A stretch of DNA of 62,843 bases, the filler included, from Sphacelaria rigidula (taxonomy: Eukaryota), in NCBI GenBank assembly GCA_964200075.2. It is 5 parts of 5 records of this genome, joined end to end, with 100 filler letters (N's around TTAATTAATTAA, not from the genome) between each part and the next. Parts side by side here need not be neighbours in the genome. Positions count along the whole stretch, not along the records: positions 37,770 to 50,256 come from CAXNAA020003708.1; 4 more parts are not named here. One strand, 5' to 3'. The translations under genes were made by a program, and so were the position numbers. The notes under the pieces are model-generated. The model was not told where the DNA came from. It was given only the letters and a program-made list of their open reading frames with translations, and did no database searches. This document shows positions 12,492 to 56,191 of the stretch, piece by piece. Positions within the stretch are counted from its first letter, which is position 1. The number at the start of each line of letters is the position of its first letter.

Positions 12492-12591
12492 NNNNNNNNN
12501 NNNNNNNNNNNNNNNNNNNNNNNNNNNNNNNNNNNTTAATTAATTAANNNNNNNNNNNNNNNNNNNNNNNNNNNNNNNNNNNNNNNNNNNN
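12492..12591. other. Artificial contig linker
   Basis: 100 bp of N with central TTAATTAATTAA (stops in all six frames). Confidence 0.98.
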
Positions 12592-25081: not shown

Positions 25082-25181
25082 NNNNNNNNNNNNNNNNNNN
25101 NNNNNNNNNNNNNNNNNNNNNNNNNTTAATTAATTAANNNNNNNNNNNNNNNNNNNNNNNNNNNNNNNNNNNNNNNNNNNN
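25082..25181. other. Artificial contig linker
   Basis: 100-bp N/TTAATTAATTAA spacer. Confidence 0.98.
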
Positions 25182-35200: not shown

Positions 35201-36786
35201 GGCGGTGGTTATGAAATATGCGGTACATAACTCTAGTATTTCGACCACCATAGCAGCCTCACACCTATGCGCGATATATACTGGTCGACGCCCGGGCAAC
35301 ACAGTCTCCGTGAAGCTCCTGACATCTGCCACGTGCTCGGACACCTTGACCTTCCTCTTACGAGATTTTTCGTCCTGCAAATACACAGACACACGCGAAA
35401 TGAAACAACAGATGGCCGTGGAGCTAGCGCTTCATTGGACGACTTGCGGAGCCACGGTTGCTCAAACGTTTGCACGTTAAACATCGCCGGGGTTCGACCC
35501 ATCCTGAAAGGCGCAAGGCAGCGCGAATATATTGCAGGACAACAAGTTGGCAGTACCACACACACCCCTAGCTCTGGCGGGGGCGTTCCTGACGTCCCTC
35601 TTAGGCTGATAGCGAACGTCTCGTAGCCCTTGCTCGCGAGAAACGGCATCCAATGCTCCCCCCAGCACCAGGCAGCATGGAAAGACCCGTGGATGAAGAC
35701 CAATGGCGGTAGCGGTTTACTGCGGGATTCGAAGACGATGTGTCGTGGATTGCGGAGTGAGGGAGCACTATGCGCTGATATGAAGACAGCCCGATGGCGT
35801 CGTAATGGTCTGTGACGTGTGCAAAGCTGAACCGGGATCGTTGGGGTCGTGTGCCGACTTCCATACCCCCGTACTAAAACAAGTGGGAACGATAGGGGTA
35901 TAGTGGGCAGACTCTTGCATGACACAGAGTCACGGTAAGCGGTACGCTATCAGCAGAAAACAGAGAGAAAGTCAGAGAGAATGATCATGCACACGGAACG
36001 ATGGAAGCCTCACCAACTTAAGCGGTCACATGTATTACAAGTGCCAACACAGTGGAAAGCCAGCAATGTTGTCAGGGCGCACGTGACTAGCTGATCCAAC
36101 ACAACAACACCCGAGAGAGTTTTTTCGCAGGTGGCTTCCGCGCAGGTCTCAATCCGGTGTGCCTCGACACATCAAATGCAGGGTATGGGGTGATCGATGC
36201 TGACCTCCGCCTCGCTGCCACGGAAGACGGTGCCTGGGATAAGACCTCCATCGACACACCGGACGGCAGATCCACGTTCTCTTGCTTCAAAGGCCCGACC
36301 TTAACACTGGAGAGTACACAGCACACCAAAACAGATAAACGCAACGCCGAGAATCATGACGGGTACATGGACGAAACGCGACACCCTCGCAGGATGAACA
36401 GCACGGATTTAATACAAGCGACCGCACCGTGTAGATCCCCAGCGCCAACCCTGATTGACCATGACCCAGAAGAGATAATTGGCCAGGGATAGTGAGGTTT
36501 TGAACCAGATAGCTGTAACCCAATGTCATGGCGAGAATCTCCTCACCAGATCTTGCACCAAGCATTCCGTAACAACCCCCGCACGGAAGTGTATGGCGTA
36601 CCTTTTGGGAACCATATCTGCTTCCCTCGCGGTGTTAGTCATAGGTAGAAGACTAGAAGCCGCCCTGCCCTGTCGGTGCCCGTGTATGTTGGCACCGGTG
36701 CACTCACGTGCATCCGCTGCCCCAGATGCTGCCGTCCGAGCTAGCGGAGCGTCCTTCGATACAGGCAGTGCAGGGTACATTGCCAT
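26253..36786 (-). CDS. Alpha/beta-fold hydrolase, 9 exons, ~431 aa (start codon tentative)
   Basis: Exons 36786-36602, 36306-36205, 35809-35566, 35374-35265, 34858-34648, 33487-33369, 32027-31902, 31132-31024 and 26342-26253. All have GT-AG borders and compatible phases (1296 nt). Motifs: LVFIHGSFHAAWCW, AH-S-FGG nucleophile, LVVGAERD acid, PHEVML histidine. Confidence 0.88.
28991..29412. mobile_element. hAT MITE with internal ~39-bp tandem repeats, in the last intron of the hydrolase
   Basis: Perfect 25-bp TIR CAAGGTTGTGTTCTGTAAGGTACGG; 8-bp TSD ATATCTTC (28983-28990, 29413-29420). Confidence 0.95.
29540..31000 (+). pseudogene. Possible heavily decayed hAT transposase inside an intron
   Basis: GTSMTIDGST resembles G.S...DGWT and TACTAPCLN resembles C.AHCLN, in the expected order; many stops. 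Confidence 0.35.
31580..31815 (+). mobile_element. Short LINE/SINE 3' end with (CAA)n tail
   Basis: TAGCCTGTG.CCACG.AAGG..GGAAC.GTTTTGA.TG followed by CAA repeats; matches 20376-20507. Confidence 0.65.
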
Positions 36787-37669: not shown

Positions 37670-37769
37670 NNNNNNNNNNNNNNNNNNNNNNNNNNNNNNN
37701 NNNNNNNNNNNNNTTAATTAATTAANNNNNNNNNNNNNNNNNNNNNNNNNNNNNNNNNNNNNNNNNNNN
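37670..37769. other. Artificial contig linker
   Basis: 100-bp N/TTAATTAATTAA spacer. Confidence 0.98.
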
Positions 37770-40700
37770 ACTGTTGGGGGGGGGGCTATCGTAGAAAGTG
37801 TCTAGTGAGTCTACCTAATTGGTAGAGTACAATGTATACTATGTTTTCCTCAACGCCCCCGTCAGCTCAACATTTCGGACACGCGACAATACAAACTCTC
37901 AGAATTTTCGGAATCCTAAGAACCATTCATCAGAAAACGAGCATATCTCTCAAAATTATTCGCGCCCAATGCTTTGGTGAGGATGTCTGCGTGTTGTTCT
38001 CGTGAGTTGATGTATTCTACGCGGATGATGCCGCTGTCGATGGCGTCCCTGACGACGTGGTGTTTGACGTCAATGTGCCTGATCCTTCGGCTACTCAAGC
38101 GGCTATTCGCCATTTTTTTGCGCCCTGATTGCCCTCGTGAAATGGGATAATTGTATCAGCGGGCGGTGACATGACTTTTTTAACCTGCCTAAGGAAGCGC
38201 AGCTCGTTCGTTGCCTCTGCGAACGCGATGTACTCCGACTCTGATGTAGCCGAAGCGGTGAGTTTTTTTCGTCCGGGAGAACCAGCTGATGGTGCCTCCG
38301 GTCAGCATGAACGCTGCTCCTGACACCGAACGCCTGGTATCCGGGCAGGTCGCATGGTCCGCGTCGACCCACGCGGAAAGCTTAGTGTCATATCACGATG
38401 TTCCTTCGTACACGATCCCATAGTGTGTAGTGCGCTTCAGCTACTGCATGACCTTCATCACTGCTTTCCAGTGTGCCGGTCCCGGGTTGTCGCTTAACTT
38501 GGCGACATTGTGTGCTGCAAAGGATAGATGGAGCCATGCCATGATGGCAATCCACATCAGTGCCCCCACCGCCTCTCGGGGATACTCCGCATCTCGTTGA
38601 CCTTGTCTTTGTTCTCTGAATTTTCTGCCTTCGAGAGCGCAGATGTTCCGGTAGCGACCGGAATCTTACTAGTTTCGACGATTTCGAAGCGCTCGATCAG
38701 TTTCTTTGCGTACTGGCGTTGGTCAAGAGTCACCGTTCCAACATTGCGGTCCCGGGAGACATGGCACCCAAAGGGGTATGAGATATCCCCCAGGTCCTTG
38801 ATGGAGAAGCTGGATTGCAGATCTGCGAGTGCCCTTTCTTCGTCCTCCTTCGTGGTGCTGATCACGGAAATTCGTCCACGTAGACCACTATGATGACTGC
38901 CACGCAGCCTTCTCGCTTCTTGCGGTAGACGCAAGGGTCGGCTTGTGGTCTCTCGAAACCCTTGCGGATCACTTCTTGGCCAAACTTCTTTGACCATAGT
39001 AGTCCTGCGTGCACCAGACCGTATATGGCCTTGTTGAGGCGTCCAACTTGGTTTCTGGACTGACGGTATCCATCGGGTAGTTCAATATAGATTTCTTCCT
39101 CGACGTCCGCTTCGAGGTAGGTCATCTCTACACCTCGTTGGCGTCCTTCCCAGTTCTGTGTTGCCATGAGCGCAAGTGCCATCCGAGTGCTGGGTTGCGC
39201 CGGTGTGGGAGAGGAAAACTCCTGGTAGTGAATGCCACGTATCTGGAGAAAACCTTGGGCGACGAATCGACATTTGTATTTCTCGACTTCTCCGTCCTTG
39301 TTCATCTTCCTCTTGAAGACGAGTCTTGTACCGAGTATGGTCCTGTCCTGAGGTCGGTTGACGGACGTTCAGACCCCACGAGAGAGTTGTCCTTCCATCT
39401 TCCGCTGAAAAGCTCCGCGTCACTGCGGCCATTCCGCAGGTTCTTGGACCTTTTTGAGGGTCGTCGACTCCTCCGGCACTTCGCGTGGCGTTGTGATGAC
39501 TGATGCTTCTTTTGTGGCCATAGCGCCTTCCACCTTCCTAGTCTCGAGTGCTGCTGTTCCTACCTTGAGTGCCACGCTTCGCAGCGCGGTCAGGCCTCCA
39601 CTCGGGGTCCGGGTGGGCAGCATCACCGGTATCTCGTCGGTGTAATAGTCCGTCAGTTTCTTACGGCGGCTGGCTGTTGTTGCATACCAGCTTCTTCTGG
39701 TTCATCTGGTTCATCTGCCTCGCCCGGAAAATCTGGTTCCACTGGCATGTCGTTACCCGGGTCGATGTCAGACGGCTACTCCGTGCCCTTGGATTCCGTT
39801 TCGTCTTCCTCCGTGATGGTCGGCAGCAGACTGAATGATCTGCGGGAAGATGATAAGTGTTGCCTGCGATAAGACGAGTGCTTGTACCCTCCCCCCCCCG
39901 GCTTTGCGGGGGTGAACACTTGCGCCTGAAGAGTGGAGGGATGCCAAGTGACGGATTGTCGTAAGACGACTGATCCAGTAGTCAAGTCGCGCACTCAGTA
40001 GTTGTGTGAAGGACGGTCCATGGCCATTCCGAGCAGGATGCACTCGTGTTCGCGTGGTGCGAGCTTGTTAGGCAGGTTGTGGCGCCGCATGTAGCCCCCG
40101 GTGCCAAACGGAATAATCCCGGAGAGTGATGGCTTGTCGCCGTACCAGAGTTCGTGGGGCGTGACCCCTTGGTCGAGGAATGATGTGACGCACATGTTGG
40201 ACATGTCGCATGCGTATTGCATGGCTTCGGCCCAGAGGCGGTTGATTTTTCCTTCTTTGAGTCCTCGGAGGAGGGCGACTCCGTTGTACTGCGGTGTATA
40301 CGGCGGCGTCTTTTCGTGGTTGATGCCTAGGCTGTTCAGGAGATCTTGAAGTTCTCCTCCAAAGTCGACACCTCCGTCGGTGCGGAATATGTCAATCTTG
40401 AGGCCGGCTGGCAAAATGAAGCGATGATATCCTCGAGCGCTCCGGCGGCTTGGTCCTTGTGCTCGAAAAAACGAACGATCTCGAAGCGGGAGTAATCGTC
40501 CACGCACAGCATGGTGTTGCGGCCCCCCGAGAGCGAAGGCTCGGGAAAGGGGCCGGCGAGGTCGACGTAAAAGCGTCCAGCGCGTGACTTGGCGCGGGTT
40601 TCGGTGGTTTTTGGGCACCGCATATCGACGCACTCGTGCTTCCGAGAGGGGGTGCACCGTTGTCACTCTCCAGTGAAGCGGATCCCGGTCATCTTCGCTG

Positions 40701-42240
40701 TGTTGCGAGTGATTCCCTCGCCTGGATGTCAGAGCGCGCAGCGGAACTCCATCATGTCGTGTGAAGACGTTCTGCAGCTGATTAGCGTCGCTGATGATGA
40801 GTGCTGTGTGTGATTGTGTGGGATCGACTGCGCACCTTGTGACGCACGAATGACCGCGGCTGCGGGGTAGATCCTTGGAGGTGCGTCAAGAGCTCTCGAT
40901 AGCTCTGTTGCCGAAAGCAGGTTGTGTTGACCGAGCTGGGGCACGTGAGCGATTCGTGCTAGCTCGAGTTCTTCCGTCGCTCCAGTGAAGCCCCCGCACC
41001 CCTGGTCAACGAGGAGTTGTACACGCCCATAGCCTACCACGCGTAGGAGCTAGCCGTCCGCAGTTTCCACTTGGTCGAACGGGGAAGCAGGCTGGTATTC
41101 CTGAAGGTGTGCGGGGTTTGACGTAGGGTGTTCAGTTGATCCGCTGTCCGCCACCCAGAGCTCTTTATCCTTGTTTGCTTCGACGAGCCGATTGCCTGCC
41201 TTGGACATATCAGCAGTCAGTCCAGCGCCTAGGGTGCTCTTCGCCAGGGTACTCTTCTGACGATTTCCCGACGTTAGTGGCGTTGGACGGTTGGGGCATT
41301 CAGAAGATTCGTGTGGACCCTTGCAGTAGTGACATCCCGTGCGTGGTGTTCTCGATTCTCCGTCGTGGGGGGTTGTGTCCGCGGGACCATTCTGGCCTTG
41401 CGTTGTTCTTGCCGCGGATGGTGTTCCGTCTTCCGCCACGGTTGTTGCCCCCATGGTTGCGTCGCCCTTCTTCCCTAGCATGAGCAATGATTTTGTACTT
41501 GCGGCACGTAGAAGCGTCATGTCCAGGCTTGGAAGAGAGGACGCAGGATAGGCCACGTTTGTCGCCACCGTCTGATGTCTTCACGGTGACGAGGGCGTGC
41601 GAGCCAGCATCCTTCCTCTCATTCTCCAGGCGATCATACTGGTTCATGATTGTGCGTTCAATCCAGTCTCGGTTCGGCCAGTTTGCGGAACTTTCGAGTA
41701 TGCGGACTTCGGCGTCGTATTGGCTGGACAGCCCTCAGATGATCACGACGTCGAAGTCCTTGGAGTCGACCGGTCTGCCGGCACGTTCGAGTTCGCGGAC
41801 CAGACGGTCGATTCTGAGCAGGTACTTACGTGGGAGCTCTCCGACCTCCATCTTTAACCGGTAAAATTGAGTGATGAGACGCTTGTGCTCTCTGTACCCG
41901 CTGGCATGATAGTGCTGGACTAGGCGTCTCCACGCCTGGCTGGGTGAGACTGAATCCTGAACGATTTCTAAGGCAGTCCCCTCGCAGTTAGTGATGAGCG
42001 ACCCCCATGCCTGGTTTGCTTTGCTCAATTTGATGGGGTCGCAGCTTCTGCTGTCGAAGTCTTCTTGGCCAACTTCGAGTTCGTCGTCCCCGGTGGCGTT
42101 CAGTACATCGACGCAGCCCAGTGCTGTCAGCTGGGCTCTATGCGCTTGGGACCAGTCGTTCCAGTCCTCAGCTTCACCCGAAAAAATGTTGGAACTCGAT
42201 TTTTGCGGCTGGTCGGCGTAGTGATGTGGACCCCGGCTCT
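37770..42240 (-). mobile_element. Decayed Ty1/copia LTR retrotransposon (copia-1)
   Basis: Order gag-PR-IN-RT-RH: CVLSSKPGHDASTC, CHYCKGPHESSEC, WVADSGSTEH, VDDYSR/RTDGG/PQYNG, KYKCRFVAQGF, LNKAIYGL, VYVD, RHIDVKHH. G-rich tract at 37856-37860 precedes a 3' LTR start at ~37855. Confidence 0.93.
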
Positions 42241-42246
42241 TGTGTA

Positions 42247-42886
42247 TGTGATACAAAAAGAATGGTGTTGGCCATAGTGGTCGTCCACATGCATGTCTCT
42301 ACTGTACAAGTCGAGTACTAGAGCGAACAACAATAGCATTTCGATCATGCAAGTTACGATGTCTCGCTAGCTCATGCATGATATGACTTACTTTTACTAA
42401 GGGTTACACATTTCACCATTCCATTTGTGCACAAAGTTCGTTTTACTATCATGCCGATCTTCTTGCATCTATCTGCTCGTTGCCTGAATCAACCTCGTTA
42501 CAGTCTCACCGTTATGCCTGAAACAAGAGCAAGCTCACAGCACGTGGGAAAGTCCAATGCAGAACGATACACGACGAACGTCACGATACCTTGATCACCG
42601 CTTCAGGTCGATTCGATTTCTTTTTCCACTTGGTGGGACTTACCTCAGCACTCAAAAGAGAGTGAATCCCAGGGTGCCAGCTGGATCGATTCTTGTAAAG
42701 AACCGAATCCAACCAGATGTAAAGAGGCATGTTTATGTATGCCGTCTTTTGACGGATTACACCGCCTTCACCCCTGACCACGGTACTAGCTAGTTCCCGC
42801 AATCAGCCCTCCGGGCATAGTGTCGTTTTGAAACCGACGGCCCATCATCGTACTATCTCCATCACGCCACGCTGCGATCCGTAACA
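42247..42886 (-). repeat. Putative 3' LTR of gypsy-2
   Basis: Minus strand polypurine tract GAGGGAGGG (42887-42895) is followed directly by TGTTACGG. The distal end ..ATCACA at 42247 is tentative and coincides with where copia homology resumes. Confidence 0.55.
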
Positions 42887-43163
42887 CCCTCCCTCAGTCC
42901 TAGGATTGAAAAACCCTGGGACTGAACGTGGTTTACACGATGGATCGCCGCGATACCATGTCCCTCTTCCAGAGTACTCGGCGTCTTGGTGTAGCCGTCG
43001 ATCTTGATAATCGTTCTGTTAATTAGACCGCGTAGGGCACTTCCATACCGCGCAGGAACGATTCTATCCCGCTCGGGGGGGGTCCGCTGTATTGTTGACT
43101 GCTCTGCCGGGTTAGACCACGTAGGGAATTTAAACACCGTGCAGGAACGGTCTGTTCTCTCCA

Positions 43164-43625
43164 TCAGTTAGATCCTGAAACTGTTCCGGTATCTTGCTCA
43201 TTCACCGTATATTTTCGCACCTCCAACGGCGTCATCTCTTCCCAGTCTCCATCCTCATACTTGATACGGTAATACGGTTGACGGAAATCGAACACCTCTC
43301 CGTCGAACTCCTGCTGCTCACCTTGGTTGTCTACAAACCGTTTACGGACTTTAGTCCCTCGAGGAATCTGTCGTAAAGCTTCATTCCGAGCAATAGAGTC
43401 TCTTTCCGCTCGAGATGGCGTAACAGATGGGCGTGGTTTGGCTTGCGGGTGATATGGTCCCACAAAGCATGGAACACGTCCAGCTGCAACCCAGTGAAAC
43501 TGTCCAACACTTCCTCCTCAGAAAACCAATGAGATTCAGCTTCGTCATGAAATAACCCTCGATAGGCCCACTCCCATGACGATCCTGCTCCTAGCACCAC
43601 TTTTCCTATCTGTCAGTGTGTACAG
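43164..43625 (-). pseudogene. Integrase C-terminal chromo-like and Tudor-like modules (frameshifted)
   Basis: WEWAYRGLFHDEAESHWFSEEEV, then GTKVRKRFVD..EFDGEVFDFRQPYYRIKYEDGDWEEMT (Tudor-like beta-barrel pattern). Confidence 0.7.
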
Positions 43626-44283
43626 TTGTGGGACGACCTCGATCCCCTCAACCAAACCCAGATCAGCCCCCCATGCTAACTGAGAGTACTCGTCCGGAAA
43701 CGGGTGTCGCAGCTGTTCAGGGCGCACATGAAATTTCTTCACATTGGCTGCCGACACCGTCCGTTCTCGTACTTTGCGTCCCTGCATACTGACCTTAAGG
43801 CTGAGACCGGGTATCACCACGTGCTGCACCGTCCATGGTCCCGTCCACAAGTCGTGCACGAGTTTAGTCGGTACATCCTCGTGCACAAGGGAGCTGTCGG
43901 ACTCCTTTACTAACAGCAAAGGAAGGAAGGGTCAGCAGCTCGTGAACTTCCTTCGGGTTTCGGCGTTGTTGTTCCACCGTGTTGTTTAACGGTGGAGACT
44001 CCGCTTCAGGTGACACAGCGTCTATTTGTGTGCGTGGTTCGCGCCCAAAAAGCAGCTTGAATGGAGTCGGCTTACTAGGCAATGAAGGATCGGGAGTAGT
44101 ACGGTGAATCCACACAGCGGGGTCTACGTACTCATCCCACCTTTTCGGCCATTGCTTACAAAGCTCGGCCAGAACGTCGTGCAACAATCCTCCGTACCTC
44201 TCTACCGCGCCTTGACCGCGAGGGTGCTCTGCCGGACCATGGTCCAGCTTCACCTTCATCCACTGGCATACATGGTTCACTAC

Positions 44284-44745
44284 TGTCATGGTACGATACT
44301 TACCACCTGGGTAGGAAGATGCCAGTTCAGTGGGCACCGGGTCTAGCAGGCCCAAACACAGTCTGTAGTATCGAAACCATTGAGTTCGATATTATCGAGT
44401 GCAAGTCAACCACCGCACCAGTGGTCAGGTGGCATGGCATGAGCCGTGCAGGCTGCAGCACAACATGTGTTGCATGAAGGTCAGGCTTACATTTTGTGAA
44501 GACCAGAGAATCCTCTGAGACAGCAGTCCCTGATGGCGTAGATGCTCTTGTATTATTGGCGTACAGGCTAACTTGTGCTTTGCTAGTTGAGATGCATAGT
44601 CCAGAACGCTGTGGCCCCAAGGGGGCCGCCATATCAATCCAATAGCACAATGTAGTATGACCCATCAGGCCATCAGGTACCAAGCATGACAAAGTATGAC
44701 AAATGGAACCCAGTCGACTGGAACATGGCCAATAAATCTGTGACA
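44284..44745. mobile_element. Solo LTR (462 bp) inserted in the integrase of gypsy-2
   Basis: TGTCA...TGACA termini; 4-bp TSD CTAC (44280-44283, 44746-44749); AATAAA at 44731. Removal restores FTSAVVNHVCQW in frame. Confidence 0.9.
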
Positions 44746-47155
44746 CTACCGCCGACGTGAACTCCCCCCCAGCGTCACTCCTCAAAAAGTAGGGTACCCC
44801 AAACGTCAAGAAGAGCTTCAGCAGACATTTCGCCACGGGTACCGCGATCTTGGCAGCCAATGAGGAAGCAAAGAGAAACTTGGTTGCTCGATCCACGATG
44901 ATCAACAAATACCTGTTGCCCGAGGCAGAAACCTGCTTCATGTCCGATATGTCCATCTCTAACACCTCCCATGCTCGCAGAAATCGAGCAGGCCGCATTG
45001 CTAGGCTGTGGCTGTTGGTACGCTTGCGTCGACGACATCCACAAGATAACACGTATTTGCGAATATCGACGAGAAGGCCAGGCCATTCGTACCGTGCGTT
45101 GACTACGGCAGTCGTCCTCATCACTCCAGCGTGCCCATGCTTAGTGTGCACCCACGCCAGCAGCCCTGGCACTAAGCTGCGTGGGATAGCCAACTTGGCT
45201 GGCTCCTTAGGGGAGGTGTACCATAGAAGATCACTCTCATCTAGCACGTACGCATCCCGTTTCTTGCTAGCTCCTTCATCCTTAGACTCCTTTCTCAACC
45301 TATCCTTGATGGGTCCCAGACGGAAGTTCGGCTCTTGTAATAACACAAGTTGTGATTTGTCCATCAGAATCGCCCGCGTTTGTTCGAGAACGGTTCTGGG
45401 GTTACCTTCACCTGGCACTGGTTCCTCAGCCGAGGCCTCCTCCCCACCAGAGTCCTGGTCCGACTTATGTTCCGCTTCGGGAACCGAAGAGCGAGTTACT
45501 GCGGCTCCCCACGTCTCTGGCAACTTATTCTCATGCGGCCATATCGCGTCCTCACTCTCAATCCGAGTCAAGCTTAACAAACCTTCTGCTTCCAAGCTTG
45601 ATAAGACTGCCCCCAACATCCACGGATGAACGAAACTAGCCATAAGATCTAGCATGGCATCGGGGTTCACCGTTGGTGGAGTCTCGTAGTGGTCGAGGGT
45701 GGTCGCGACTCTGACGAAGTCGTCTTTTTCTAACTCTACTGCTTCCTCCCATACCCCCGCGTCTGCCCTGTTGGGTGTAAAGTCCTCGCGCCGAGGTTTC
45801 CCTTTCATCAGGCGAGAACGAGTTAACCTGGGCATCGGATCCTCGAAACTATGAATAGCCGTGCCTTGTCCCGGAGGCTCCAAGAAATAGGTGCCAGTCC
45901 GCTCCAAGAGCTGGCCCAACGGGGGGCAGGTAACAGCATACACTTCCACTCGCTGCCTCCATGCGCGTAGTGATTCTTCCACCTGCCGACCAGCCTTCAG
46001 AGCGACCACATAGGTCCGTCGCTTTCTGTACGGGGCACCCACCTGCACGGCTGAGATAGAAGCCTGCTCAACGCAGCAACCGGCTTTGTGCAGCAACGGG
46101 GCCACGCTCTCCGTCCAACCCGGAGAGTGTACCATCACACAGGTACTTTCCAAGATCAGTGTTGTCGTCGGGACTGAGGAGAGGAACGACTCGACCAATT
46201 CTCGGACACCATCTGCCGATTCCAACTCTCCCGCACTTTTATCAACGAAAGTAACCCTACTCGTATCTCCTACCAGCACTCCTGGTTGCACCTCTTCCAC
46301 CAGATTGTGGAAAGAAGGGCACCCTGGAGTCGTACGTACCAGCTTGACTCCCTTCCCAATATGGTTCATTCTGACACAATCAAGCGCCTTCCAATTTGCA
46401 TCAGTAGCTGCTACCACCTTCAAGAACTTCTCTGCGGCAAGAATGCTTCCCCCGCCTCCACAATGTACAATCAAAGCAGGTCGTTGCTTAACCGGCCCTG
46501 CCACAGGGTTCTCTGAGTCAACCCCGTTCATCGCTTCCGGTGGATACAACGCGCTGACCTCCTTCAACGCCAATGCCATCACATCCGCGGATTCCTTCGG
46601 ATACTCAGCCTCCAACTCCTTCAACAACATTCCGTCCAGTTTGGGTCTTTGCGGTCCTCCTCCTCCGCCGGGTCCAGCTTCGGTATCATCGTCAGGAAAT
46701 GACACGTCAATGTCAATTCCCCGAGGTTGGCTCCCTTGCAGCCGAGACAGGGCGTCCGGCAACTGGTGTTCGCGTCCAGCTCTCCACTTGAGGACCATAT
46801 CATACTCCATCAATCTTAGCGCCCACTGGTGGAACTTAGGCGACAAGTTCTGACCACGAAACAGCCATGTCAACGCACTGCAATCCGTAACCAGCGTAAA
46901 CTCTCGTCCCCATAGGTACGATTTGAATCGTTCCACGGACCACAAAACAGCGACTACTTCTCTCTCTGATGCTGACCTTTCTTCATCTGCTCGCGACCAT
47001 CTATGACTAGCGTATTCGATGACCCATTCCCTCTCATCCGCCTCCTGGGACAGGGCGGCCCCTGCTGCGAACTCGGAAGCGTCTGAACGTAGCACGAACC
47101 GTTCATTCCAACCCGGGTACGCCAAGATCGGATATGACATCAGAGCGCTCTTCAA
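44746..47155 (-). CDS. pol: Open pol segment: RNase H - DNMT-like domain - integrase N-terminal half
   Basis: ~800 codons of the 942-aa ORF are uninterrupted up to the solo LTR. Confidence 0.85.
45590..46485 (-). other. C5 cytosine DNA methyltransferase-like domain within Pol, catalytic motifs degenerate
   Basis: Colinear motifs: I HCGGGGS; II VVAATDANWKALDCVRMN; IV position VLVGDTSR (no PC); VI LILEST (for ENV); VIII ISAVQVGAPYRKRRTYVVA; IX/X DFVRVATTLDHY..LMASFVHPWMLGAVL. Confidence 0.75.
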
Positions 47156-47185
47156 GTCTAGGAATGCTTGTTGCTGCTGTTCTCC

Positions 47186-49298
47186 CTACGGAATCTTCAT
47201 CCTCCGTGCTCGCTTGGAAGCGAACCGCGGGTCACGCAGCAAGTCCGTGAGCGGTGCTGCCGTGTTACTGTACCCCTTTATGTACCTCCGCAAATATCCA
47301 GTCATACCTAGGAACGACCTTAGCTCTTCTACCCTCTGCAGCTCCCTCAACTGAGCGATGGCTTCAATCTTAGACTGGAAAGGTCGTATTCCCGACGCGT
47401 CGATCATCATCCCTACGAAGTCCTGTTGCTGAGTGCACCATTGTGATTTCTGGAAATTCACAGTGAGGCCAGCCTTCAGCAAGCAATAGAGCACAACTCT
47501 CGACCCCGTTATGCGGCCGGCGAAAGTCGCACTAGGCCACAAGATATCATCCAACCAGTTCTTGACACTCCGCGCCGGCAACAACGCTTCAGATACCGTT
47601 CGGTGGAATGTCGCGGGTAGTACCTTGAGTCCGAATCCACAGCGTTGATACTACCATAAATATCCCCTTGCATCGCGAAAGGCGGTAAGGTGTCGGTCTT
47701 CTTTCGCCACTTCCAACTGGAAAAACCCACTTGCTAAATCAACACTCGTAAAGTACTTGGATCCCGCTAAGCCACTATACATGGTCTGCATGTCCCCCAA
47801 ACCACCACTATACGACTCGAGAAGTTCGTTTAGTCAACGATAGTCCTGACACAACCGTAAACTACCGTCCTTCTTCCGCACCGTGACGCAAGCAGCTGCC
47901 CATGCGGACGTCGACGGCTCAATGATCCCCCGCTCCGCGAGTTTCTGGACCTCGTCTTGTATAGCAGTTTCTTGTTCCGGCGAGTACCGTCTAGTACCAG
48001 CAGCGAATGGCCGACCCTTAGGATCTTTCAGTCGTAGATGCAATGGCTCCCCACGCGCTGCTTTCACCCGCTCGGGGTCCACCGCGAACAAACCTGCTTC
48101 GTTGAAGTCTCTCAACACAGATAACAGCTGGGTCTTCTGCACCGGACCCAACTGGCCCATGTTCGCCTCCGTGAGATCTACTCCTGTGGCTCCAGTTGTG
48201 TCCTTCTCCACTTTCGTTGGTTCCGGCGGCGGTTGGGGAGGGGCTGGCGTAGTCCCTCGATCCTCCAGCCTCGACTTCAGCGTGGTACCCGTGTCGGACA
48301 CATGAAGATTTTGCAACCGCTCGCGATCTCGAACATTCACGGCCACAACCTCCGCCACTATCACATCTTTCTTCACTAGGCGAGCACTCTTGGCCATGTT
48401 GATTACCTTACATACTAGCGGTAATTGTGGGTCCCACCACTGCACTCCCCTGGCTACCCCTATTTCGGCTTCCTCATCTAAATCGAACAACTTTCGAGGT
48501 TCGATCAACACCAGTTGACGTTCCTGCGGTTGAGGACCTCGCACATAGCCTGGAACTAGCTCGCTAACAAAGCCTTCTAACCTTGTGTCCTCCGTCAGCC
48601 GCAGAAGCCACTGAAGTGTAGCGTCGTCCTCCCACGCCGTCCTCCCACGCCGCTCCAAGGCTCTTCCACACCTCATCCCATGCTGCCAGATCGCTCTCTT
48701 CCGACAACATCCCCGTCGGGTCATCACTGCGCGCTAATGGCTTGACAGCACAGAAGAGATTCCACCTTGTCACACCTCCTTGGCCGGTGAGGTCATCGCT
48801 GTCAACAGCTCCGAGTTTTGGTGAACCATTAGATACAAATCTTACCCACGGAGCCTCCGGCGAAGGTCGAAATCCTGATCGACCTTCGAACGACAGCGTA
48901 CTCTTGTTCCTTCCAAAGAAACTTGCCCCCAAAATGAATCCGTACGGCAATCCATCGACCACCCTGAACCATACTTTCCTTATTCTATCCTTCGGGTGGA
49001 ACCGAATCGGGATTACCGTTGACCCTAGAATCTTCAGCGGTGGCGTCCGGCTGTCACTAGGGTTTGCTGCCCTCAAAAATCCTGCTCCCTGTCGCTGCAG
49101 CTTGCCTGTGATATTACCCAACGTCACCAACGATTTCCACCACTGCTTCGATGCATAGCTACCCCCCCCCGCCACGGTGTCCAGTAACACCGTTACTGGT
49201 AAACCGTGGCTACTTTTGCTGTGGTGCCAAACTCTAGCTTGCACCCACAGCTGCTGTGCATCGCCACCCTTTACTGCTGATAAAGTATCTACGTACAC
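47186..49298 (-). pseudogene. pol: Protease and reverse transcriptase of gypsy-2
   Basis: VTVLLDT; RRYSPEQ..STSAWAA..KKDGSLRLCQDYR (premature stop at 47834); WLDD; LRSFLGMTGY. Confidence 0.9.
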
Positions 49299-49334
49299 GC
49301 TGTCCCCCGGGGACTGCGGCCCCAGGGCGCACCC

Positions 49335-50108
49335 TCATTCCTCGCTTGTGGCGTCGAAACGGTTGCTCAGTGCATCAACCGTCTCGACCCCCTCCTCCTC
49401 GACGTCGCTTTCTGGTTTGTCCAGCCCGTGGTTGAACCCCCGATCTTCGTACTGGCCGTCAATCAACCCGAACAACTCCCCCAGTTGTAGGCCCATTAGC
49501 CTGTCCCTCTTCGTCTTGGGCTTTGCTTGTTTTTGCTCCGGTTGCTTGTAATGACCGAAGGGAATTCGATCTTGATCATGGGAGTAATTTCAGCCGCCCT
49601 CTGAGTCCTTGCTGCTGCAGTCTCGTCCATATGCGTGGTTTAAACACACCCCTAGCAAACGGATGGCGACGTCGCGCTCCCCCTTGGGCGCATTGTGGGC
49701 AGGGAGGAACCCGGTCGCCGGTGCCTCTCCTTGCGTGTCAAACTTGACACGCTTGGTGGGCTCAGCTGATTCTTCCCTCGGGCGCTTCTGTGCTCCACGA
49801 GTAGATGAGGATGCCCCGAAAGGCGTGCCGCCTCTTGGTGTTGACGCCTTTTGGTTGCTGAAGGCAGCAACAGAGTCAAAGTCTTGCCCTTGGTTTTCCT
49901 CCTCTGCTTCCTGCATGAGTCGCTTCTGAACTTCTACCAGCCCCGCGTATATGGGCTTCGGTGCGGGGCGTGTTAATGCTGCAGTAGTGCTGTTCATCGC
50001 CTCAGTAGATGTTCTAGAACATTCACAGTGACGTTGAATGGCCGATACAAATTCACTATATATATATGATACGTGCGGCGCCCTCGCTCCTTCATGTCGG
50101 GGCTGCAC
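49335..50108 (-). pseudogene. gag: gag C-terminal region of gypsy-2 with CCCH-like finger
   Basis: CLNHAYGRDCSSKDSEGG*NYSH; same frame as the downstream protease ORF. Confidence 0.55.
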
Positions 50109-50256
50109 GTGTCTCCATGGTGAACTGGTAAGGATCGGAAGTCGTCTTCTAAGGCTTTGTTGGGTGCTTGTAGTAACGTATGTGATACGATCTGTAACAG
50201 CAAATTGTGCGAATTGAGGTTTAACTCTGAATTGAGGCTCAAGTGGGCAACCCGAC

Positions 50257-50356
50257 NNNNNNNNNNNNNNNNNNNNNNNNNNNNNNNNNNNNNNNNNNNN
50301 TTAATTAATTAANNNNNNNNNNNNNNNNNNNNNNNNNNNNNNNNNNNNNNNNNNNN
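50257..50356. other. Artificial contig linker
   Basis: 100-bp N/TTAATTAATTAA spacer. Confidence 0.98.
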
Positions 50357-51609
50357 GTGTGGAAAGCACTGTTTTAGGCTTGAACCTCATCTCGGAGTTA
50401 AACCTCAATTCGCACAATTTGTTGTTATGGCTGTACACAAGATTCAGAACGTCAAATTGTTTTTTATCCAGCCTATTGATAATCTACAGCCGTTTTGAGG
50501 TAGGTGGCTGTGACAACTGTGACGTGCTGGCAGGTTGCGTGATGCTGCAGAACTCAGCATCATGCGGCGGAACTTCAAGGTCTTCGAGAAAATGGAATCC
50601 CGTGTGCCCTGTAGGCAGATCGGAGCCACTCTGGTAATGTGTGGAGATGAAGTACGCAATAAAACAAAAGTATTTCGGGCCGTGTGTGACGTGTAGGGTG
50701 AAGTCCTCGCAGAAAATCGGCGTACAGACATCACAACTGCTTGTATACCAACCAGCGGAGTCCTCGCTATCAATCCCAGGGGGTGTGCAATGCTCCGCAA
50801 TCAGCTTTGAATATCGTGAAGCACCGCATGCAGTCGATGTAAATGCAGTCAAATACCCTCAGTTAACAACTCGTACTTCAATCGCAACTCGTGACACGGT
50901 CCACTGTTTTTGGGCACAACGCTGGAGTGTACTGCGGTACTGTATGCTGTTCAGCATACACCAACACATGGGCGAATACGCGTGATAAGACGACTCAATC
51001 TACAGGCACCTGTTCAAGTGTTCCAATTACATACATTATCGCCGCTGAGCAGGTTCCAATTTTCAAATTGGTTGTCTGCTCATGCTATTCCAGATCCGGT
51101 GTTGGATTTCTGTGACAGAAAAACGAGCAGAACGTTTCGAGAACGTTTCAAAAAACAAACAGAACGTTTCAAGAACCGCTCAAAACATGACCCCATTAGC
51201 TGGAGTACAGGGTGGTACACTCAGCACAAGACAACTCTGCAGTGGTGTATGAAGTGCAAAGTACTACACTGAACACCAGACAACACGGCAGTTCTGCAGT
51301 GTTGTCTAGTTTTAGAACCTGAAGACGGACTGTATACAACAGTACGAGTATGCATCAGTATATCTTGTTGCAAAATTAATCTTGCCGTGGCCGCGAGCGC
51401 TGATGCCGATGCCAACGGCAGCAGCCGTCATGCTGAGTACCCTGACGGTGCAGTATATCCGTACTGTTCAAGGGAAACGGTAAGAACGTGGAAGAGGTGC
51501 TGACCGATTTTGTTTGTACACACTTACCCCTTCCACCGCGTTTGTTTTACTAGTCGTGGCGTGCTCACAGGCAATTTTCTAGTTGGTGTTCGGATGACAG
51601 CAAGCACAG

Positions 51610-52095
51610 ACAATACAGTAGTGCCACATTACAAGCACGAGCTGTACTCTGCGAGAACAAACAATACAGCAGCGCCAGGTTACAAGCACGGGCTGTACTC
51701 GCGAGCACAGTAGGCCGCTGTGCTTTGCCAATACAGTACAGTGCTACACCGTCTTCACGGTAGGGTTCGAGGCCACATGCAGATGCACGTACATGGCAGT
51801 GGTGGGTGCAGATGCAAAGGTGTATCACTACTGACTACGCGAAGGTTTTACTTTGTTTGTGAACGTCCGTAACGTGTCGCAGATTTTTTAACGTGGGCTC
51901 TCGAATTGTAGAAAGCAAAATTACAAAACGTGGGCTCTCGAATTAAAAAATACGAGGCGGGACTGGTCATCATAAAGGGTGAAGATGGATCGTTATTTTG
52001 TCTTGTATAGGTTACAAGCACAGCGGGATGCACTCGCGAGCGCAGTAGGTAGCCGTGCTTTGCCAGTAAAGTACGGTAGTATACCGCCTTCACTG
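51610..52095 (+). repeat. Local diverged direct repeats
   Basis: CAATACAG..TTACAAGCACG.GCTGTACTC twice (51611, 51662) and a third related block at ~52010; ACGTGGGCTCTCGAATT twice (~51891, 51928). Confidence 0.65.
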
Positions 52096-55000
52096 TCGCA
52101 CCCTTGCGCACGTGGAAGGACGTCATTCGGACTAGAATGATGGTGTCTGGAATTTGCGTGGTGCGATACGCGAGAGAATTGTCATCGTTAATCTATGGCC
52201 CTTACTTTCTTTCCATCCCTTCTTCTGCTTGTATGCCGTTCTTTTTCTTCATTGGGGGCGTACGTCTCTTCTGTCCCTTTTCCATTCCATTTCAATGTAA
52301 GAAAGGATATAGGAACATTGGAAGTGCGATGCGAAGCAGAGCAATCTTTGGTCTTACCAGTACACCAACAGTTAACCAAAGTTGAAGCTTGAGGATTCAA
52401 CGCCGATAAGGACTGTTGAGCAGAATCCGGTCCCGGTCATTGAAGCGTGAGGACGCCAACAGCAGGGAAGCTTCGACGAGAGTCACCATGATGCGAAACA
52501 AAAATCCAATACTCGCTAGCAAAACGAGAGGTAGTTACCGTGGGAGATATAGATTGGTCCCTTGAGACTTCTGATGCGTCCCGAGGCAAGGGAGTCGGGC
52601 CTTGAACGTGTGACGAAAAGGCAATGGCATCTCAACCCCAACAGACAAATGCGAACGCATGGTGGAAAGACATGCATCTGTACTGAAGAATAGAAACAAT
52701 CAGAGGTACCCAGTACCACCAGTGTCATTTAGTCCGCCTCAAACTCCTCGGTATTTTTGCGCTTGTTTCTGTTCACGCGTGGTTTTGACCTTCTTTTTAT
52801 CAACTGCACAGGCACAAGTGGTGGCGACAAAGCTCGCCGATCGAAGTCGAGCGACGGCGTCAGACACCTTATCTGCTATGCATGTGCACGGAGACATACC
52901 TCTGGATAGCTGCGTGTTTCGTCGCACTGAAGTCATGTCTAGATAGAGCGTGCAAGGAGATGGTGATTTTGCGATGGTAACGCTGAAACAGGACTGTTCA
53001 GTGAGCCCAGGAACCCGACATTCCATGATTTATGTCACTTATCCATACTCACGAAGGTATGTCACTATGTCCATGATGCGTACTTTGTTTTTGAGTAACA
53101 CGGACCTTTTCCCCATCTCTGAGAAATCTCTTCACTCGAACCAAATCGAATGGCACATCACGCTTTGCTCCAATTTGATGTCCTTGAGCCTACATCTGTG
53201 CTTTCCGCGTCGTATGCGCCAATTTGGCCATCTCAACGTCGTCCGTGAGGAACTGCGATATTGAGCCTTACTTCACTCCAAATTTCCATGGGAAAAACAC
53301 AACGGACAATCTTCATTGAGACATCGCTGGGGCGTTGTAGCCGCAGAAGTGCAAGCCGTTTCGCGGACTCGCGTATTTTCGCGGGAGCCCTTCATCACTG
53401 TGTAACTTTCATATGTGATATGGATATCCATCTGGGATGCCCATCTAGGTCGGAATGACAATATAAAGCAACTCAGGCACTCCCAGCGGAGATCAAACCG
53501 TCTCCACAAAGGCCTGAAGACGCCACATCGCAGCGACACCTACAGCACACAAGACAGAGCAAGAGTGTGTTTGTGCTGCAGCATAGTGGTACAGGACATA
53601 TCCCATTTGATAGTTCTTTCCCTGTTTCCGGGTGGGTCCTCGATTTTTGCCCAGTGGCGATTTTCAAACGCTCGGCCATAATCGCGCTTCGCGCGAAGAT
53701 ATTTCAACTAACTTTGAGTTACCCCTATCTGTGGGAAGTGAGCCGGTAAATTTGACCATGTACCTGTATTCTCCTGTTGCAGTTGTGATGGAACCCGTCA
53801 GGTCAGTAGCGACCGGTTGCAGGCGCTCTGTGACAGATGCAGAATCAGATGCCTTGGGGTGATTCCGTTGCGTGCTCAACGCCACCAAATACTTCCGTGG
53901 GGCGCATACCCACGTTGAATGTGTCAGATATCTCTGGATGCGTCAGGGAGATAATGGCGCGCCTACAGCGCTTCCATTGGAGGAACTTACTGCCTTCGAA
54001 GTTACTTATACTCTTGATGAGCTGTGCAACAGATGGCCCTTCTTGGTTATTGATCTGTTCCAACGTGCGAACATTTTTTTCACGTAAAAAGTGTCCAAGA
54101 AACAATCTGGATACTGGACTCTTCTCACTTTCGCTGCTGTGATGACCTTGATGGGACGTCTCCTCGCTGATGCCCAATTGTGAGGTCGCGAATCGAAGGC
54201 TCAAACCTTGTTGGAAAAGGCTCGCGTTGTGTGGCACTGTCTTCTGGACAGACCGACTACTATTGCACTGGACAGTAGTGGTGTGGTGGAGGTGCACCAG
54301 TGGTTGTTAGACGATTTTCAAGGAGGAAAGAAGACGATTTTCACGAATGATCAGGTGCCCGACACAAAATAAAAATCACAGTCTCTTTTCAAAGCAGAGA
54401 GCTGAAAGAAACGACGGAGAGTGATAGCGTTGGGGGCCGAGGTGGCTAAGCACAAGCATTCTCAATCCTGGAACAAAAAGCAAAGTCCGTACACACACGT
54501 AAGACCAGATCGTATCATACCATTCAACGCTGACGTGTTATTATAGCCTTGCCTGTTGGAAAACTCGTGACTTCTGAAGGAAAAAAAGATGTTGTATTAT
54601 TGAGACCTTGGTCCGGAGAGACAGGTCGCGAAAGTAGAGTGAGCACGGTAGGCGAGCTCGTGTCATCTACAACCAAGAAACTTTGGAAACCAAAGAACCA
54701 AAGACAGCTTCCGGAAACGTTCCGGGACCTCGGCAACGTTCTACATGGTTTCAGCAACGGAACTCGGACCAACGCACTTCCTCACGTACCACAAAATCTC
54801 TGGATGTTCCCCGCACCACAAATACCATGCTTGGACTAATGCAGAATCCACAAAGAGTAGTCCTACATAAGTAACAGAAAGGACAGCGAGCGTTCTTCGC
54901 AATTCTCAAATATGAGGCAGCTCAGCAATCTACAGATCGATAGTTCCGTTATTCAAATCGTCCAATCAGAGGTTCTACGCAAATCAGTCGATACTACGGC

Positions 55001-55585
55001 TGCTATCACGAACATTGCCAGCTCTCACACTACATCTACTGCAAGCTACGTGATCTAGCTACCTTGATACAGTACACTATTGTGTGACAAACCATGGCAA
55101 CACACTTCTTTGAGCTATGTGGCTAAACGTGAAGGATTTTTTCAAAGATAATCACGAAACGACACTACAGTACATGGTGCGTGGTTTAGTTGTATCCTCA
55201 CGAGCTGTACCGCTATTTGTTTTGAAGCCGAAATCCGAAACACGGAACATGCAGCCAGGCTACAGGCTGTGTGTAAAATATCCAAGAGGTGCCCTGTATC
55301 TCATCGGGAAAAAATGTAATAAATTTGCCGCACGATCGATCAGCCAACGGGCTGGCGGTATCCTTGCATAAATTTTGACACGACATACGCTGACAAACAC
55401 TCCCTGCGGCTCCTGAGCTTAGGGGCCCCGACATGACAAACCCTTGGTCCAAAACAGTGCATCCCCACCGTGGTATAGCTCCTTGACTAGCAGCTGGTGA
55501 ACGGCTGTAGGTTAAACGCTCTAGTTTTGTGTAACTCGTACTAACCACCCGTGTCCTTTTTACTGCCCCTATTTCGACGACACTA

Positions 55586-55945
55586 CTCGGCCCAGTGGCT
55601 GAGTTGGCAACCTCAAAACCTTGTGACGGCTGGGATGTGGGTTCGAATCTCGGTGAAGCCACACGATCTGGCATTTTTCTCACATGATGCTAATAGCGAA
55701 GGGCAGCTGCGTCGTGAGTACGCAAACTTCGACTTCACGGTCGACGAAGGTAAGGGACCGCTGAACTCTTCTCGCGATAAACGTCAGGCAAGCACCGCGG
55801 AAGTAAGGTGAAGTGCTAAAACAGGATAAGAAATGAAGGAAACTTCTGTGCTGGCTGTCCTCCTGTGTTATCCCGGCTGATGCGCCCACATACACCGAAA
55901 TATGTAGATTGGCGTCCATAACGGATAGGATAACATACACATAAT
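55586..55945 (+). mobile_element. tRNA-derived SINE
   Basis: A-box TGGCTGAGTTGG and B-box GGTTCGAATC (55640); body homologous to 18829-19196. Confidence 0.8.
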
Positions 55946-56191
55946 ATACTAGAATAATATTCTGTGAAATATGAAGCATCAGCGCTACAAATGGGACCAT
56001 GGACGATCAATCCACGGGGATGTCTCACTGGTACGAAAAAATGGGGAGCCCCACATCCATCCAGGAGGGTGGATTTTTGAGTACGGTATGATGCGGCTGA
56101 AATAATACGGAGTATCTGAAAAAACACCGTTTCATTTTTGTACGAATCCCTACACATATAGCCAGGATCCGTAATTCACGAAACACGATGT

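Follow-up and report, generated by a model that had tools for sequence, protein, structure and literature searches.

A predicted, very divergent cytosine-methyltransferase fold lacking the motif IV cysteine in the Pol polyprotein of a Ty3/gypsy-type retrotransposon of Sphacelaria rigidula

Can a cytosine methyltransferase domain that is carried by a retrotransposon persist once its catalytic cysteine has been replaced and, if so, what might it be kept for? This question is raised by a decayed Ty3/gypsy-type element of Sphacelaria rigidula (assembly GCA_964200075.2), which lies in the part contributed by record CAXNAA020003708.1 (positions 37,770 to 50,256) to a composite stretch of 62,843 nucleotides, filler included, that was analyzed as a whole and is hereafter called the window. 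A minus-strand open reading frame (ORF) of 942 amino acids (aa) at 44327-47155 (protein P0001) carries every motif string considered here, and an earlier note on this DNA, made from the sequence alone, had taken a domain at 46000-46300 for a DNMT-like pseudo-enzyme retained in some non-catalytic role, such as DNA binding or that of a decoy. The best explanation, which we regard as probable on balance, is that the ORF bears a divergent C5-cytosine-methyltransferase (C5-MTase) fold embedded in Pol, that it belongs to a lineage without the motif IV cysteine, and that this lineage kept the fold as a non-methylating module.

Fold and motifs of the Pol-borne domain

The domain, together with its target-recognition region, occupies 45551-46492 on the minus strand (P0001 aa 222-535, about 314 aa). 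An AlphaFold2 model of aa 222-535, computed from 104 aligned sequences, has a mean predicted local distance difference test (pLDDT) score of 90.3 and a predicted template modeling (pTM) score of 0.88. Every match listed by Foldseek for this model is a C5-MTase, the best being Dnmt2 of S. pombe (expectation value (E) 5.6e-11), and VIA-align superimposes it at Z scores of 23.1-20.4 over 256-279 residues on Dcm, Dnmt2, M.HaeIII, M.HhaI, DNMT1, DIM-2 and ZMET2, the first six of these neighbors falling within Z 1; a C5-carboxymethyltransferase is also found among the structural neighbors. In the VIA-align superposition, residues 1-313 of the model align to residues 7-327 of M.HhaI, and the match thus spans the whole two-lobed enzyme, with its Rossmann-type catalytic lobe and its target-recognition lobe, extending beyond the Rossmann core alone. 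Indeed, the two-lobed C5-MTase fold that characterizes members of PF00145 is recovered in the model.

Sequence searches lead to the same family from a greater distance. With the domain stretch alone as the query against 1.84 billion cluster representatives, phmmer recovered 142 proteins at E ≤ 1e-3, 49 at E ≤ 1e-10 and three at E ≤ 1e-30, and it matched the canonical DNA_methylase protein P0098 (PF00145, E 1.2e-48) at E 2.4e-6 over query residues 30-320. P0098 is the nearest canonical sequence, and its own best matches are prophage and bacterial enzymes. In a protein-language-model atlas, all 30 of the 30 nearest clusters carry PF00145, with a top score of 0.95. The domain itself does not reach the gathering score of the PF00145 hidden Markov model; in a Pfam scan of 14 relatives this cut-off was passed only by P0098 (166.6 bits), with P0019 scoring 17.6 against a cut-off of 22. 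A separate homologous-protein search returned zero matches at near lengths and only two at shorter lengths. Hence, we take the domain to be, as modeled, a complete but very divergent C5-MTase fold; given that standard domain searches miss it, it may have gone unrecognized in published element libraries.

The motif register was taken from the pairwise phmmer alignment of the window to P0098; hhalign agrees with it (99.7%), but its profile contains P0098, so that this agreement bears on residue pairing only. In that register, the pairs (P0098 first, window second) are VVMGSSPCQ and VLVGDTSRV for motif IV, FVLENVP and LILESTC for motif VI, GVPQRRRRAF and GAPYRKRRTY for motif VIII, and QTANAVPPKV and LMASFVHPWM for motif X. 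The model concurs for motifs IV and VI, and the positions that the earlier note had assigned to motifs IV, VI, VIII and X are upheld. All the family column counts given below are query-anchored and were made over the 142 relatives; the family numbers at least this many database clusters.

The glycine loop of motif I, CGGGGS (46445-46462, minus strand, aa 232-237), sits within the string HCGGGGS (aa 231-237, 46445-46465), and its family glycines are kept in 35/43, 30/44, 38/45 and 39/47 sequences. The S-adenosylmethionine (SAM) loop of the form F-x-G-x-G-G is therefore recognizable, with the preceding aromatic residue represented by a His in the window and mostly by Gly or Ser in the family. 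Its persistence, which had been claimed before, extends to the family at large and to the Cys-less group described below. The motif IV slot reads VLVGDTSR (46256-46279, minus strand, aa 293-300). In the model, strand 4 comprises residues 72-76 (GVLVG) and is followed by DTSR and a low-confidence loop at the place of the PCQ signature and catalytic loop. The Pro-Cys pair is thus missing from the window, as the earlier note had read it, and the Pro is replaced across the family, where the successive columns are Gly (51/64), Asn (34) or Asp (23 of 64), Ala (32) or Thr (13 of 61), Cys (25) or Ser (18 of 57) and Arg (42/53).

Motif VI, LILEST (46142-46159, minus strand, aa 333-338), retains the Glu and has its Asn-Val replaced; the modeled strand 5 ends in LILES, and the family has Leu (40/62), Glu (51/60), Cys (29) or Ser (18 of 62) and Thr (25) or Pro (14 of 62). 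In motif VIII, PYRKRR (46016-46033, minus strand, aa 375-380; YRKRR at aa 376-380, 46016-46030), the canonical Q-x-R-x-R has become Y-R-K-R-R, with the Gln lost, the first Arg turned into Lys and the last Arg kept, and the family shows Pro in 50/61, Lys in 44/62 and Arg in 43/62. Finally, the remnant of motif X, ASFVHP (45623-45640, minus strand, aa 506-511), has AS (aa 506-507, 45635-45640), within LMASF (aa 504-508), in place of Gly-Asn; the family columns here are Ala (16), Val (10) or Glu (10) of 38, followed by Asp (14), Glu (9) or Asn (6) of 36. The range 46000-46300 singled out earlier thus holds motifs IV, VI and VIII, with the glycine loop, the PGC string discussed below and motif X lying outside it.

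To judge from the alignments, the whole family has unusual motifs: G-N/D-A-C-R for motif IV, L-E-C/S-T/P for motif VI, P-S/T-x-K-R-R for motif VIII, and A/V/E-D/E instead of Gly-Asn for motif X. The conservation of key catalytic residues that marks the retrotransposon DNMTs is not seen in the window, which is without Pro-Cys, Glu-Asn-Val and Gly-Asn. However, EST, YRKRR and AS are family-wide and recur in relatives that bear the cysteine, and hence are by themselves no evidence of inactivity; these strings are present as the earlier note had reported, and the inactivity that it had drawn from them does not follow.

Loss of the motif IV cysteine and constraint on the rest of the domain

In many relatives that share these motifs, the motif IV slot still holds a cysteine, in the form G-N/D-A-C-R. 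We defined the window's group as those proteins with at least 45% identity to the window over aligned columns (26 proteins plus the window). Among the eight members that cover the slot none has a cysteine, with Ser in six (including the window), Thr in one and Glu in one. Single-linkage clustering of the fragments merged all of them into one group and was dropped. In an IQ-TREE tree of 48 sequences, from which three cysteine columns and their neighbors had been removed and whose root, set by a single long outgroup, is insecure, the window falls in a clade of four rows with a Shimodaira-Hasegawa-like approximate likelihood ratio test (SH-aLRT) support of 98. The cysteine is likewise missing from another clade (12 rows, SH-aLRT 99), which reads GNTSRR and LESTP, is without it in 11 of its 11 lettered rows and is nested among Cys-bearing clades, and P0026, with a Ser, pairs with P0022, with a Cys, inside a supported Cys-bearing clade. 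On this tree the state of the slot calls for a minimum of eight changes, and the starred branches alone force at least three.

These sequences indicate that the cysteine has been replaced, mostly by Ser, throughout the sub-lineage of the window, and that the Cys-less state of this copy was probably inherited from its lineage and did not arise in the copy's own decay. The earlier note had held that the changes exceed recent decay and had proposed, as a check, asking whether the loss of Pro-Cys is fixed in sister sequences; with no cysteine in any of the eight sub-lineage sequences, both points are borne out, and the pseudo-enzyme reading appears to hold for the lineage, not as a matter of recent decay.

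The presence of Cys tends to covary at three family columns: P0001 aa 299, which is the slot, aa 282, which precedes it by 17 residues, and aa 337, which follows the motif VI Glu. Between P0026 and P0022, which are identical at 91 of 159 positions, Ser stands at exactly those three of the five Cys columns of P0022, and the other two are kept. In raw counts for columns 100 and 138, both have Cys in 16 sequences, neither in 16, and nine are mixed; over three independent supported pairs, these columns differ the same way in 1.9 and in opposite ways in 0.2 (sign test, median p 0.5), and the values for the same way at the control cysteine columns, 61 and 161, are 0.0 and 0.2. The correlated loss of the three cysteines is thus suggestive, and with phylogeny allowed for (three contrasts) it is not significant.

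A further Cys-bearing relative came from metagenome contigs, where a search with a degenerate DNA pattern for D-x-D-W-R/K-A/T-L-E-C-x-R-x-N yielded one locus, L001; the same pattern found none in genome contigs or viral contigs, and a single-protein search of metagenome contigs found no relative. L001 (1-1893) is a deletion derivative bearing GDACRW, which has lost the middle of the domain (motifs VI-VIII) and resumes in a different frame with the C-terminal portion of the domain, followed by the integrase zinc finger.

Could another cysteine of the domain stand in for the one that is missing? The candidate put forward previously was the Cys of PGC (46319-46327, minus strand, aa 277-279; TTPGCPS at aa 275-281, 46313-46333), and it can be set aside. 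At 46321 the window has an A where nearly all other copies have a G (24 contigs of sequencing run X1 and 26 of X2, almost all of the depth), which makes codon 279 TGC (Cys) in the window and CGC (Arg) in nearly all other copies. P0013 and P0075 also have GR at this position, and Cys is outside the six commonest residues of this family column; the family has a Cys (35/56) three residues past PGC, where the window has a Phe. Moreover, in the AlphaFold2 model PGC opens the helix that follows strand 3 and does not lie after strand 4. Cys279 is, in short, a private CGC-to-TGC change of this copy in the wrong place of the predicted structure, and as a substitute nucleophile it is ruled out.

We then come to whether the remainder of the domain stayed under constraint, which was measured at the protein level with conserved and variable columns defined solely on the remaining groups. 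At 71 of the 101 conserved columns the window matches their consensus residue, and many of the other 30 differences are conservative. Pooled identity among members of the window's group amounts to 0.58 for the conserved columns and to 0.42 for the variable ones. In the comparison of the window with P0002 the counts are 43/60 and 27/69, respectively (p = 3.5e-4), and five of the 22 such pairwise tests reach p < 0.01. At the level of individual motifs, the Cys-less group retains the motif I glycines in 6/9, 9/9, 8/9 and 8/9 sequences, an acidic residue at motif II (Asp in eight and Glu in two of 10), W255 in 9/9, R262 in 9/10, N264 in 9/10, the motif VI Glu in 5/5 and the motif VIII Lys in 7/8. 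We are thus moderately confident that the nucleophile was selectively removed and that the rest of the domain stayed constrained. Neutral evolution of the domain had been named as an outcome that would overturn the pseudo-enzyme reading: the sub-lineage, as compared at the protein level, points to site-specific constraint, whereas the private changes of this particular copy that are listed, considered below, look neutral.

The element, its layout and the decay of this copy

The domain belongs to a Ty3/gypsy-type Pol with the order reverse transcriptase (RT), RNase H, MTase-fold domain, integrase and Tudor, all on the minus strand. The RT region (47189-48205) is in the same frame as the MTase-fold domain and is interrupted by in-frame stops. 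Residues 13-389 of the relative P0004, which overlap the Pfam matches of that protein to RVT_1 and RNase H, align by tblastn in a single frame to 48205-46961. RNase H follows at 46802-47152 (aa 2-118; RT_RNaseH, E 6.2e-26; RT_RNaseH_2, E 3.1e-22). Past the MTase-fold domain come the integrase zinc-binding domain (45023-45187, aa 657-711; Integrase_H2C2, E 5.5e-10) and the first part of the integrase core (44745-44968, aa 730 to about 804), whose match to rve (aa 730-806, E 1.2e-5) scores 25.9 bits, below the cut-off of 32.6. The start of the core is truncated by an insertion at 44278-44743, and the remaining integrase (43602-44277) runs in shifted frames, frame -3 carrying the tblastn alignment to P0004 aa 832-955 and frame -1 that to aa 988-1093. 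A C-terminal Tudor domain (43215-43358; PTM_DIR17_Tudor, PF21743, E 4.6e-8, 33.2 bits against a cut-off of 27.2) lies in the next ORF downstream (43164-43463), to which P0004 aa 1108-1155 align by tblastn.

The window therefore has RT, RNase H and an integrase with both H2C2 and DDE core, in order, along with the C-terminal Tudor, and the MTase-fold domain shares the Pol reading frame with RT, RNase H and integrase. The relatives are laid out likewise: P0004 aligns to the window along the entire series from RT to Tudor, and in the Pfam scan of 14 relatives the domain is preceded by RVT_1 and RNase H in P0004, P0084 and P0138 and by RNase H in P0072 and P0019, with eight lacking any Pfam family. 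Long terminal repeats (LTRs) were not found around the copy: there is no direct repeat of at least 40 bases in 38000-54000, and a blastn comparison of 39001-43300 with 49501-56000 gave no match. Paired 44-N runs recur about 12.6 kb apart (12492-12591, 25082-25181, 37670-37769 and 50257-50356), these being the filler between the parts; the last of them falls immediately ahead of the element, where part of an LTR or gag could go unseen.

The copy itself is an inactivated relic, broken by stops, frame shifts and an inserted repeat. Between about 48733 and 44745, its pol frame is interrupted by three in-frame stops (TGA at 47834-47836, TAG at 47651-47653 and TAG at 47186-47188), and at 47836 nearly all other copies among the run contigs have a sense codon. 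The earlier note had described the frame as open, which is true within the domain, whereas the same pol frame has these three stops upstream and is broken by the insertion downstream. That insertion is a 466-bp high-copy repeat in the integrase core (44278-44743): contigs of four of four runs join 44277 directly to 44744, six letters are shared at the joint, and contig depth at 44205-44927 is about 10-100 times that of neighboring bins in run X1. The repeat occurs once in the window and has a CpG observed/expected ratio of 0.42, against 0.96 for the whole window. Downstream of it, tblastn traces integrase and Tudor through frames -3, -1, -2 and -1, and other copies have single-base insertions at 43455, 43457 and 44263.

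These comparisons rest on contigs from four public sequencing runs aligned to 43000-50200 of the window, which reveal a high-copy family: in X1 alone there are 3169 contigs, of which 459 have at least 99% identity, 857 have 95-99%, 993 have 90-95% and 860 have less than 90%. Contigs of run X6, which may derive from RNA, also cover the domain, although this is no sign of expression. Near-fixed differences were taken from the 40 listed of 1515 variable places, and of the 15 such differences in the readable frame 11 are nonsynonymous and four synonymous, so that the private changes of this copy, those listed, look neutral. None of these 40 of 1515 places falls in the codon of Ser299, from which agreement of the copies there is not implied.

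Other copies differ from the window in further ways. At 45546, in the linker between the MTase-fold domain and integrase, they have a 21-base in-frame insertion, represented by one contig in each of three runs and covering most of the depth. Near 43092-43149 many contigs end or go back by 34-58 bases, with very high depth at 43000-43240, and a high-copy or tandem repeat seems to adjoin the 3' end of the element directly past Tudor.

Beyond this element, the window is transposon-rich. A second gypsy-type element is found on the plus strand at 8893-11450, with RVT_1 and RNase H in an ORF at 9043-10095, Integrase_H2C2 in 10289-10939 and rve in 10764-11450. Its gap between RNase H and integrase is too small for an MTase-like domain, and its RT is only 23-26% identical to those of the relatives of the first element. 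Two further ORFs, at 39995-40666 (minus strand) and 59867-60472 (plus strand), give weak, below-cut-off matches to SH3_retrovirus (E about 3e-4) and are probably copia-type fragments. An ORF at 35233-35925 (minus strand) has a weak match to Abhydrolase_6 (E 1.6e-5, just below the cut-off) and is possibly a host-gene exon.

Possible uses of the Cys-less fold and its relation to known systems

C5 methylation requires the motif IV thiol, which attacks C6 of the base; hence, thiol addition, the mechanism known for methylating cytosine C5, is closed to a sub-lineage without this cysteine. Tight binding of DNA is reported to persist in Cys mutants of M.HhaI. We propose that the Cys-less domain would have been kept as a non-methylating nucleic-acid-binding module, most likely binding DNA or cDNA, with SAM possibly still bound. 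Because it sits directly upstream of the integrase-Tudor part, it would probably be released together with that part and help to choose or to hold the integration target. The CpG observed/expected ratio is 0.96 for the whole window and 0.90 for the element, and this lack of CpG depletion fits, weakly, the absence of self-directed CG methylation.

In its boldest form, which we offer tentatively and hold to be somewhat doubtful, the proposal is that there exists a widespread, unannotated family of C5-MTase-fold domains lodged between RNase H and integrase in Tudor-bearing algal gypsies, whose members shed the cysteine at least three times independently, seemingly along with two others, with the SAM loop left in place, as well as the Glu and Arg that contact the base. 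Such domains would now act as a DNA-gripping or base-flipping module that chooses insertion sites together with integrase and Tudor, possibly in hosts without cytosine methylation. The Cys-bearing relatives, in turn, may be two-cysteine enzymes.

Several points weigh against a retained, non-methylating C5-MTase fold. With regard to the fold, Pfam finds no family in the 302-aa domain stretch even at E ≤ 10 and none there in the scan of the whole ORF, and sequence searches of solved structures gave zero matches with the single sequence and the family profile alike. As for the cysteine, the place of its slot is uncertain to within one residue, in that the ungapped alignment leads to Arg300 and the conserved Cys column of the family to Ser299; GDTSRVT, nevertheless, is without a Cys under either register. 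With respect to constraint, 17 of the 22 pairwise tests are not significant, and the identities were pooled over fragment pairs that are not independent of one another, with many fragments probably derived from dead copies. The position next to the motif VI Glu is variable among members of the window's group (Cys, Phe, Gly, Asp, Ser) and looks relaxed. The copy itself has two private changes where the family is conserved, G418E at a Gly and H462N at a column that is His in six and Asn in one of the window's group.

Those non-significant tests and the relaxed residue after the motif VI Glu, as well as the 11 nonsynonymous to four synonymous listed private changes of the copy and the existence of L001 with the middle of the domain deleted, are what would be expected if the domain were a neutral passenger, that is, an inactive segment carried along in Pol because its clean deletion is rare, with no selected role. 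We nonetheless think this unlikely, given that Cys-less members whose identity to the window stays below about 65% keep key residues in 7-10 of 8-10 sequences (motif I, the motif II Asp, W255, R262, N264, the motif VI Glu and the motif VIII Lys), that identity is higher at family-conserved than at variable columns, and that the residue seen repeatedly at the slot is Ser, which resembles Cys most closely, and not one drawn at random.

Less probable again is that the domain is still an enzyme, transferring a methyl or other group by means of another nucleophile, to an N4 or N6 atom, or on RNA or a cDNA-RNA hybrid. It would account for what is retained in motif I (the SAM-loop glycines), motif II (Asp), motif VI (Glu) and motif VIII (Lys/Arg), and two kinds of relatives lend it color: the nearest structures include the tRNA-methylating Dnmt2 and a C5-carboxymethyltransferase, and there are Cys-bearing relatives with a second Cys directly after the motif VI Glu, RNA m5C methyltransferases being likewise users of two cysteines. 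Against this, the PGC cysteine is private to this copy, the other conserved cysteines, C260 and C360, align to a non-catalytic Thr and Tyr of the canonical P0098, and the Gly-Asn of motif X and the aromatic residue of motif I are lost across the family; further, no enzyme with the C5-MTase fold is known to work without the thiol.

We give a slim chance to the idea that the domain is a helper comparable to DNMT3L or DRM3, binding and modulating an active methyltransferase of the host or of Cys-bearing sister elements. Catalytically mutated paralogs that assist active DNMTs are known, and Cys-bearing and Cys-less forms do coexist in the family; however, there is no evidence of both forms in one genome, the window has no CpG depletion, and the only described Tudor-bearing gypsy is from Ectocarpus, where 5-methylcytosine (5mC) is reported to be negligible (PMC12477816). 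Lastly, that the domain is unrelated to methyltransferases and its short motifs are alike by chance, for which only the empty searches of Pfam and of solved structures speak, is rejected as exceedingly improbable by VIA-align (Z 21-23 over the whole fold), by Foldseek (E 5.6e-11) and by phmmer (E 2.4e-6 to P0098, itself a PF00145 protein at E 1.2e-48).

If the favored reading of a retained non-methylating module is right, its interest is that known retrotransposons with working cytosine methyltransferases are thought to methylate their own DNA, and a Cys-less lineage that keeps the fold would put this module to another use. Nature would also offer, in such a lineage, a parallel to the tight DNA binding reported for Cys-mutant bacterial enzymes, with the Cys-bearing and Cys-less relatives providing a paired natural experiment on the uses of this fold besides methylation. 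In keeping a methyltransferase fold without the catalytic residues, the domain parallels DNMT3L and DRM3; yet those are host genes that partner the active DNMT3 and DRM2, whereas the domain of the window is part of a transposon polyprotein. Our searches of the full-text literature, which did not extend to subscription journals, turned up no paper in which a retrotransposon is described as carrying a cytosine methyltransferase domain that is catalytically dead.

Active counterparts have been described. SymbioLINE-Dnmt, SymbioDIRS-Dnmt3 and KnitGypsy-Dnmt3 are retrotransposon-encoded cytosine methyltransferases with conserved key catalytic residues, of which KnitGypsy-Dnmt3 has a ratio of nonsynonymous to synonymous substitution rates (Ka/Ks) below 0.2, and retrotransposon DNMTs were shown to methylate CG sites de novo when expressed in yeast (de Mendoza et al. 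2018, PMC5890265). The element of the window resembles these as they are described there in having a C5-MTase domain inside the Pol frame, and KnitGypsy-Dnmt3 is also gypsy-type. Unlike those recognizable DNMTs, its domain has no Pfam match, Pro-Cys is absent in its lineage, Glu-Asn-Val and Gly-Asn are altered across its family, and a Tudor is present.

This Tudor invites comparison with Gypsy-10_Ec32 of Ectocarpus, described as the first Tudor-bearing element, which has a homolog in Tribonema, is unusually long at 11,528 bp and has copies that are mostly deletion derivatives (PMC12477816). Both are gypsies with a C-terminal Tudor fused to integrase; the accessible text and supplement of that paper, however, mention no methyltransferase in Gypsy-10_Ec32, unlike the element of the window. 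We infer from the published description, not from sequence, that the two may be of the same lineage. The label of the sequencing runs, 'algae metagenome', and the Tudor-gypsy architecture likewise point to an algal and possibly stramenopile host.

Finally, a 2026 preprint on EpiLTRs and DAM-LTRs describes Ty3/gypsy-like elements that likewise combine a DNA methyltransferase with chromatin-reader domains (bioRxiv 10.64898/2026.05.21.726589). These, as presented there, feature adenine methyltransferases, a DNMT that is sister to the DNMT4 clade and is described as a cytosine methyltransferase, and chromodomains, whereas the element of the window couples a Tudor domain to what is predicted to be a Cys-less C5-MTase fold set between RNase H and integrase.

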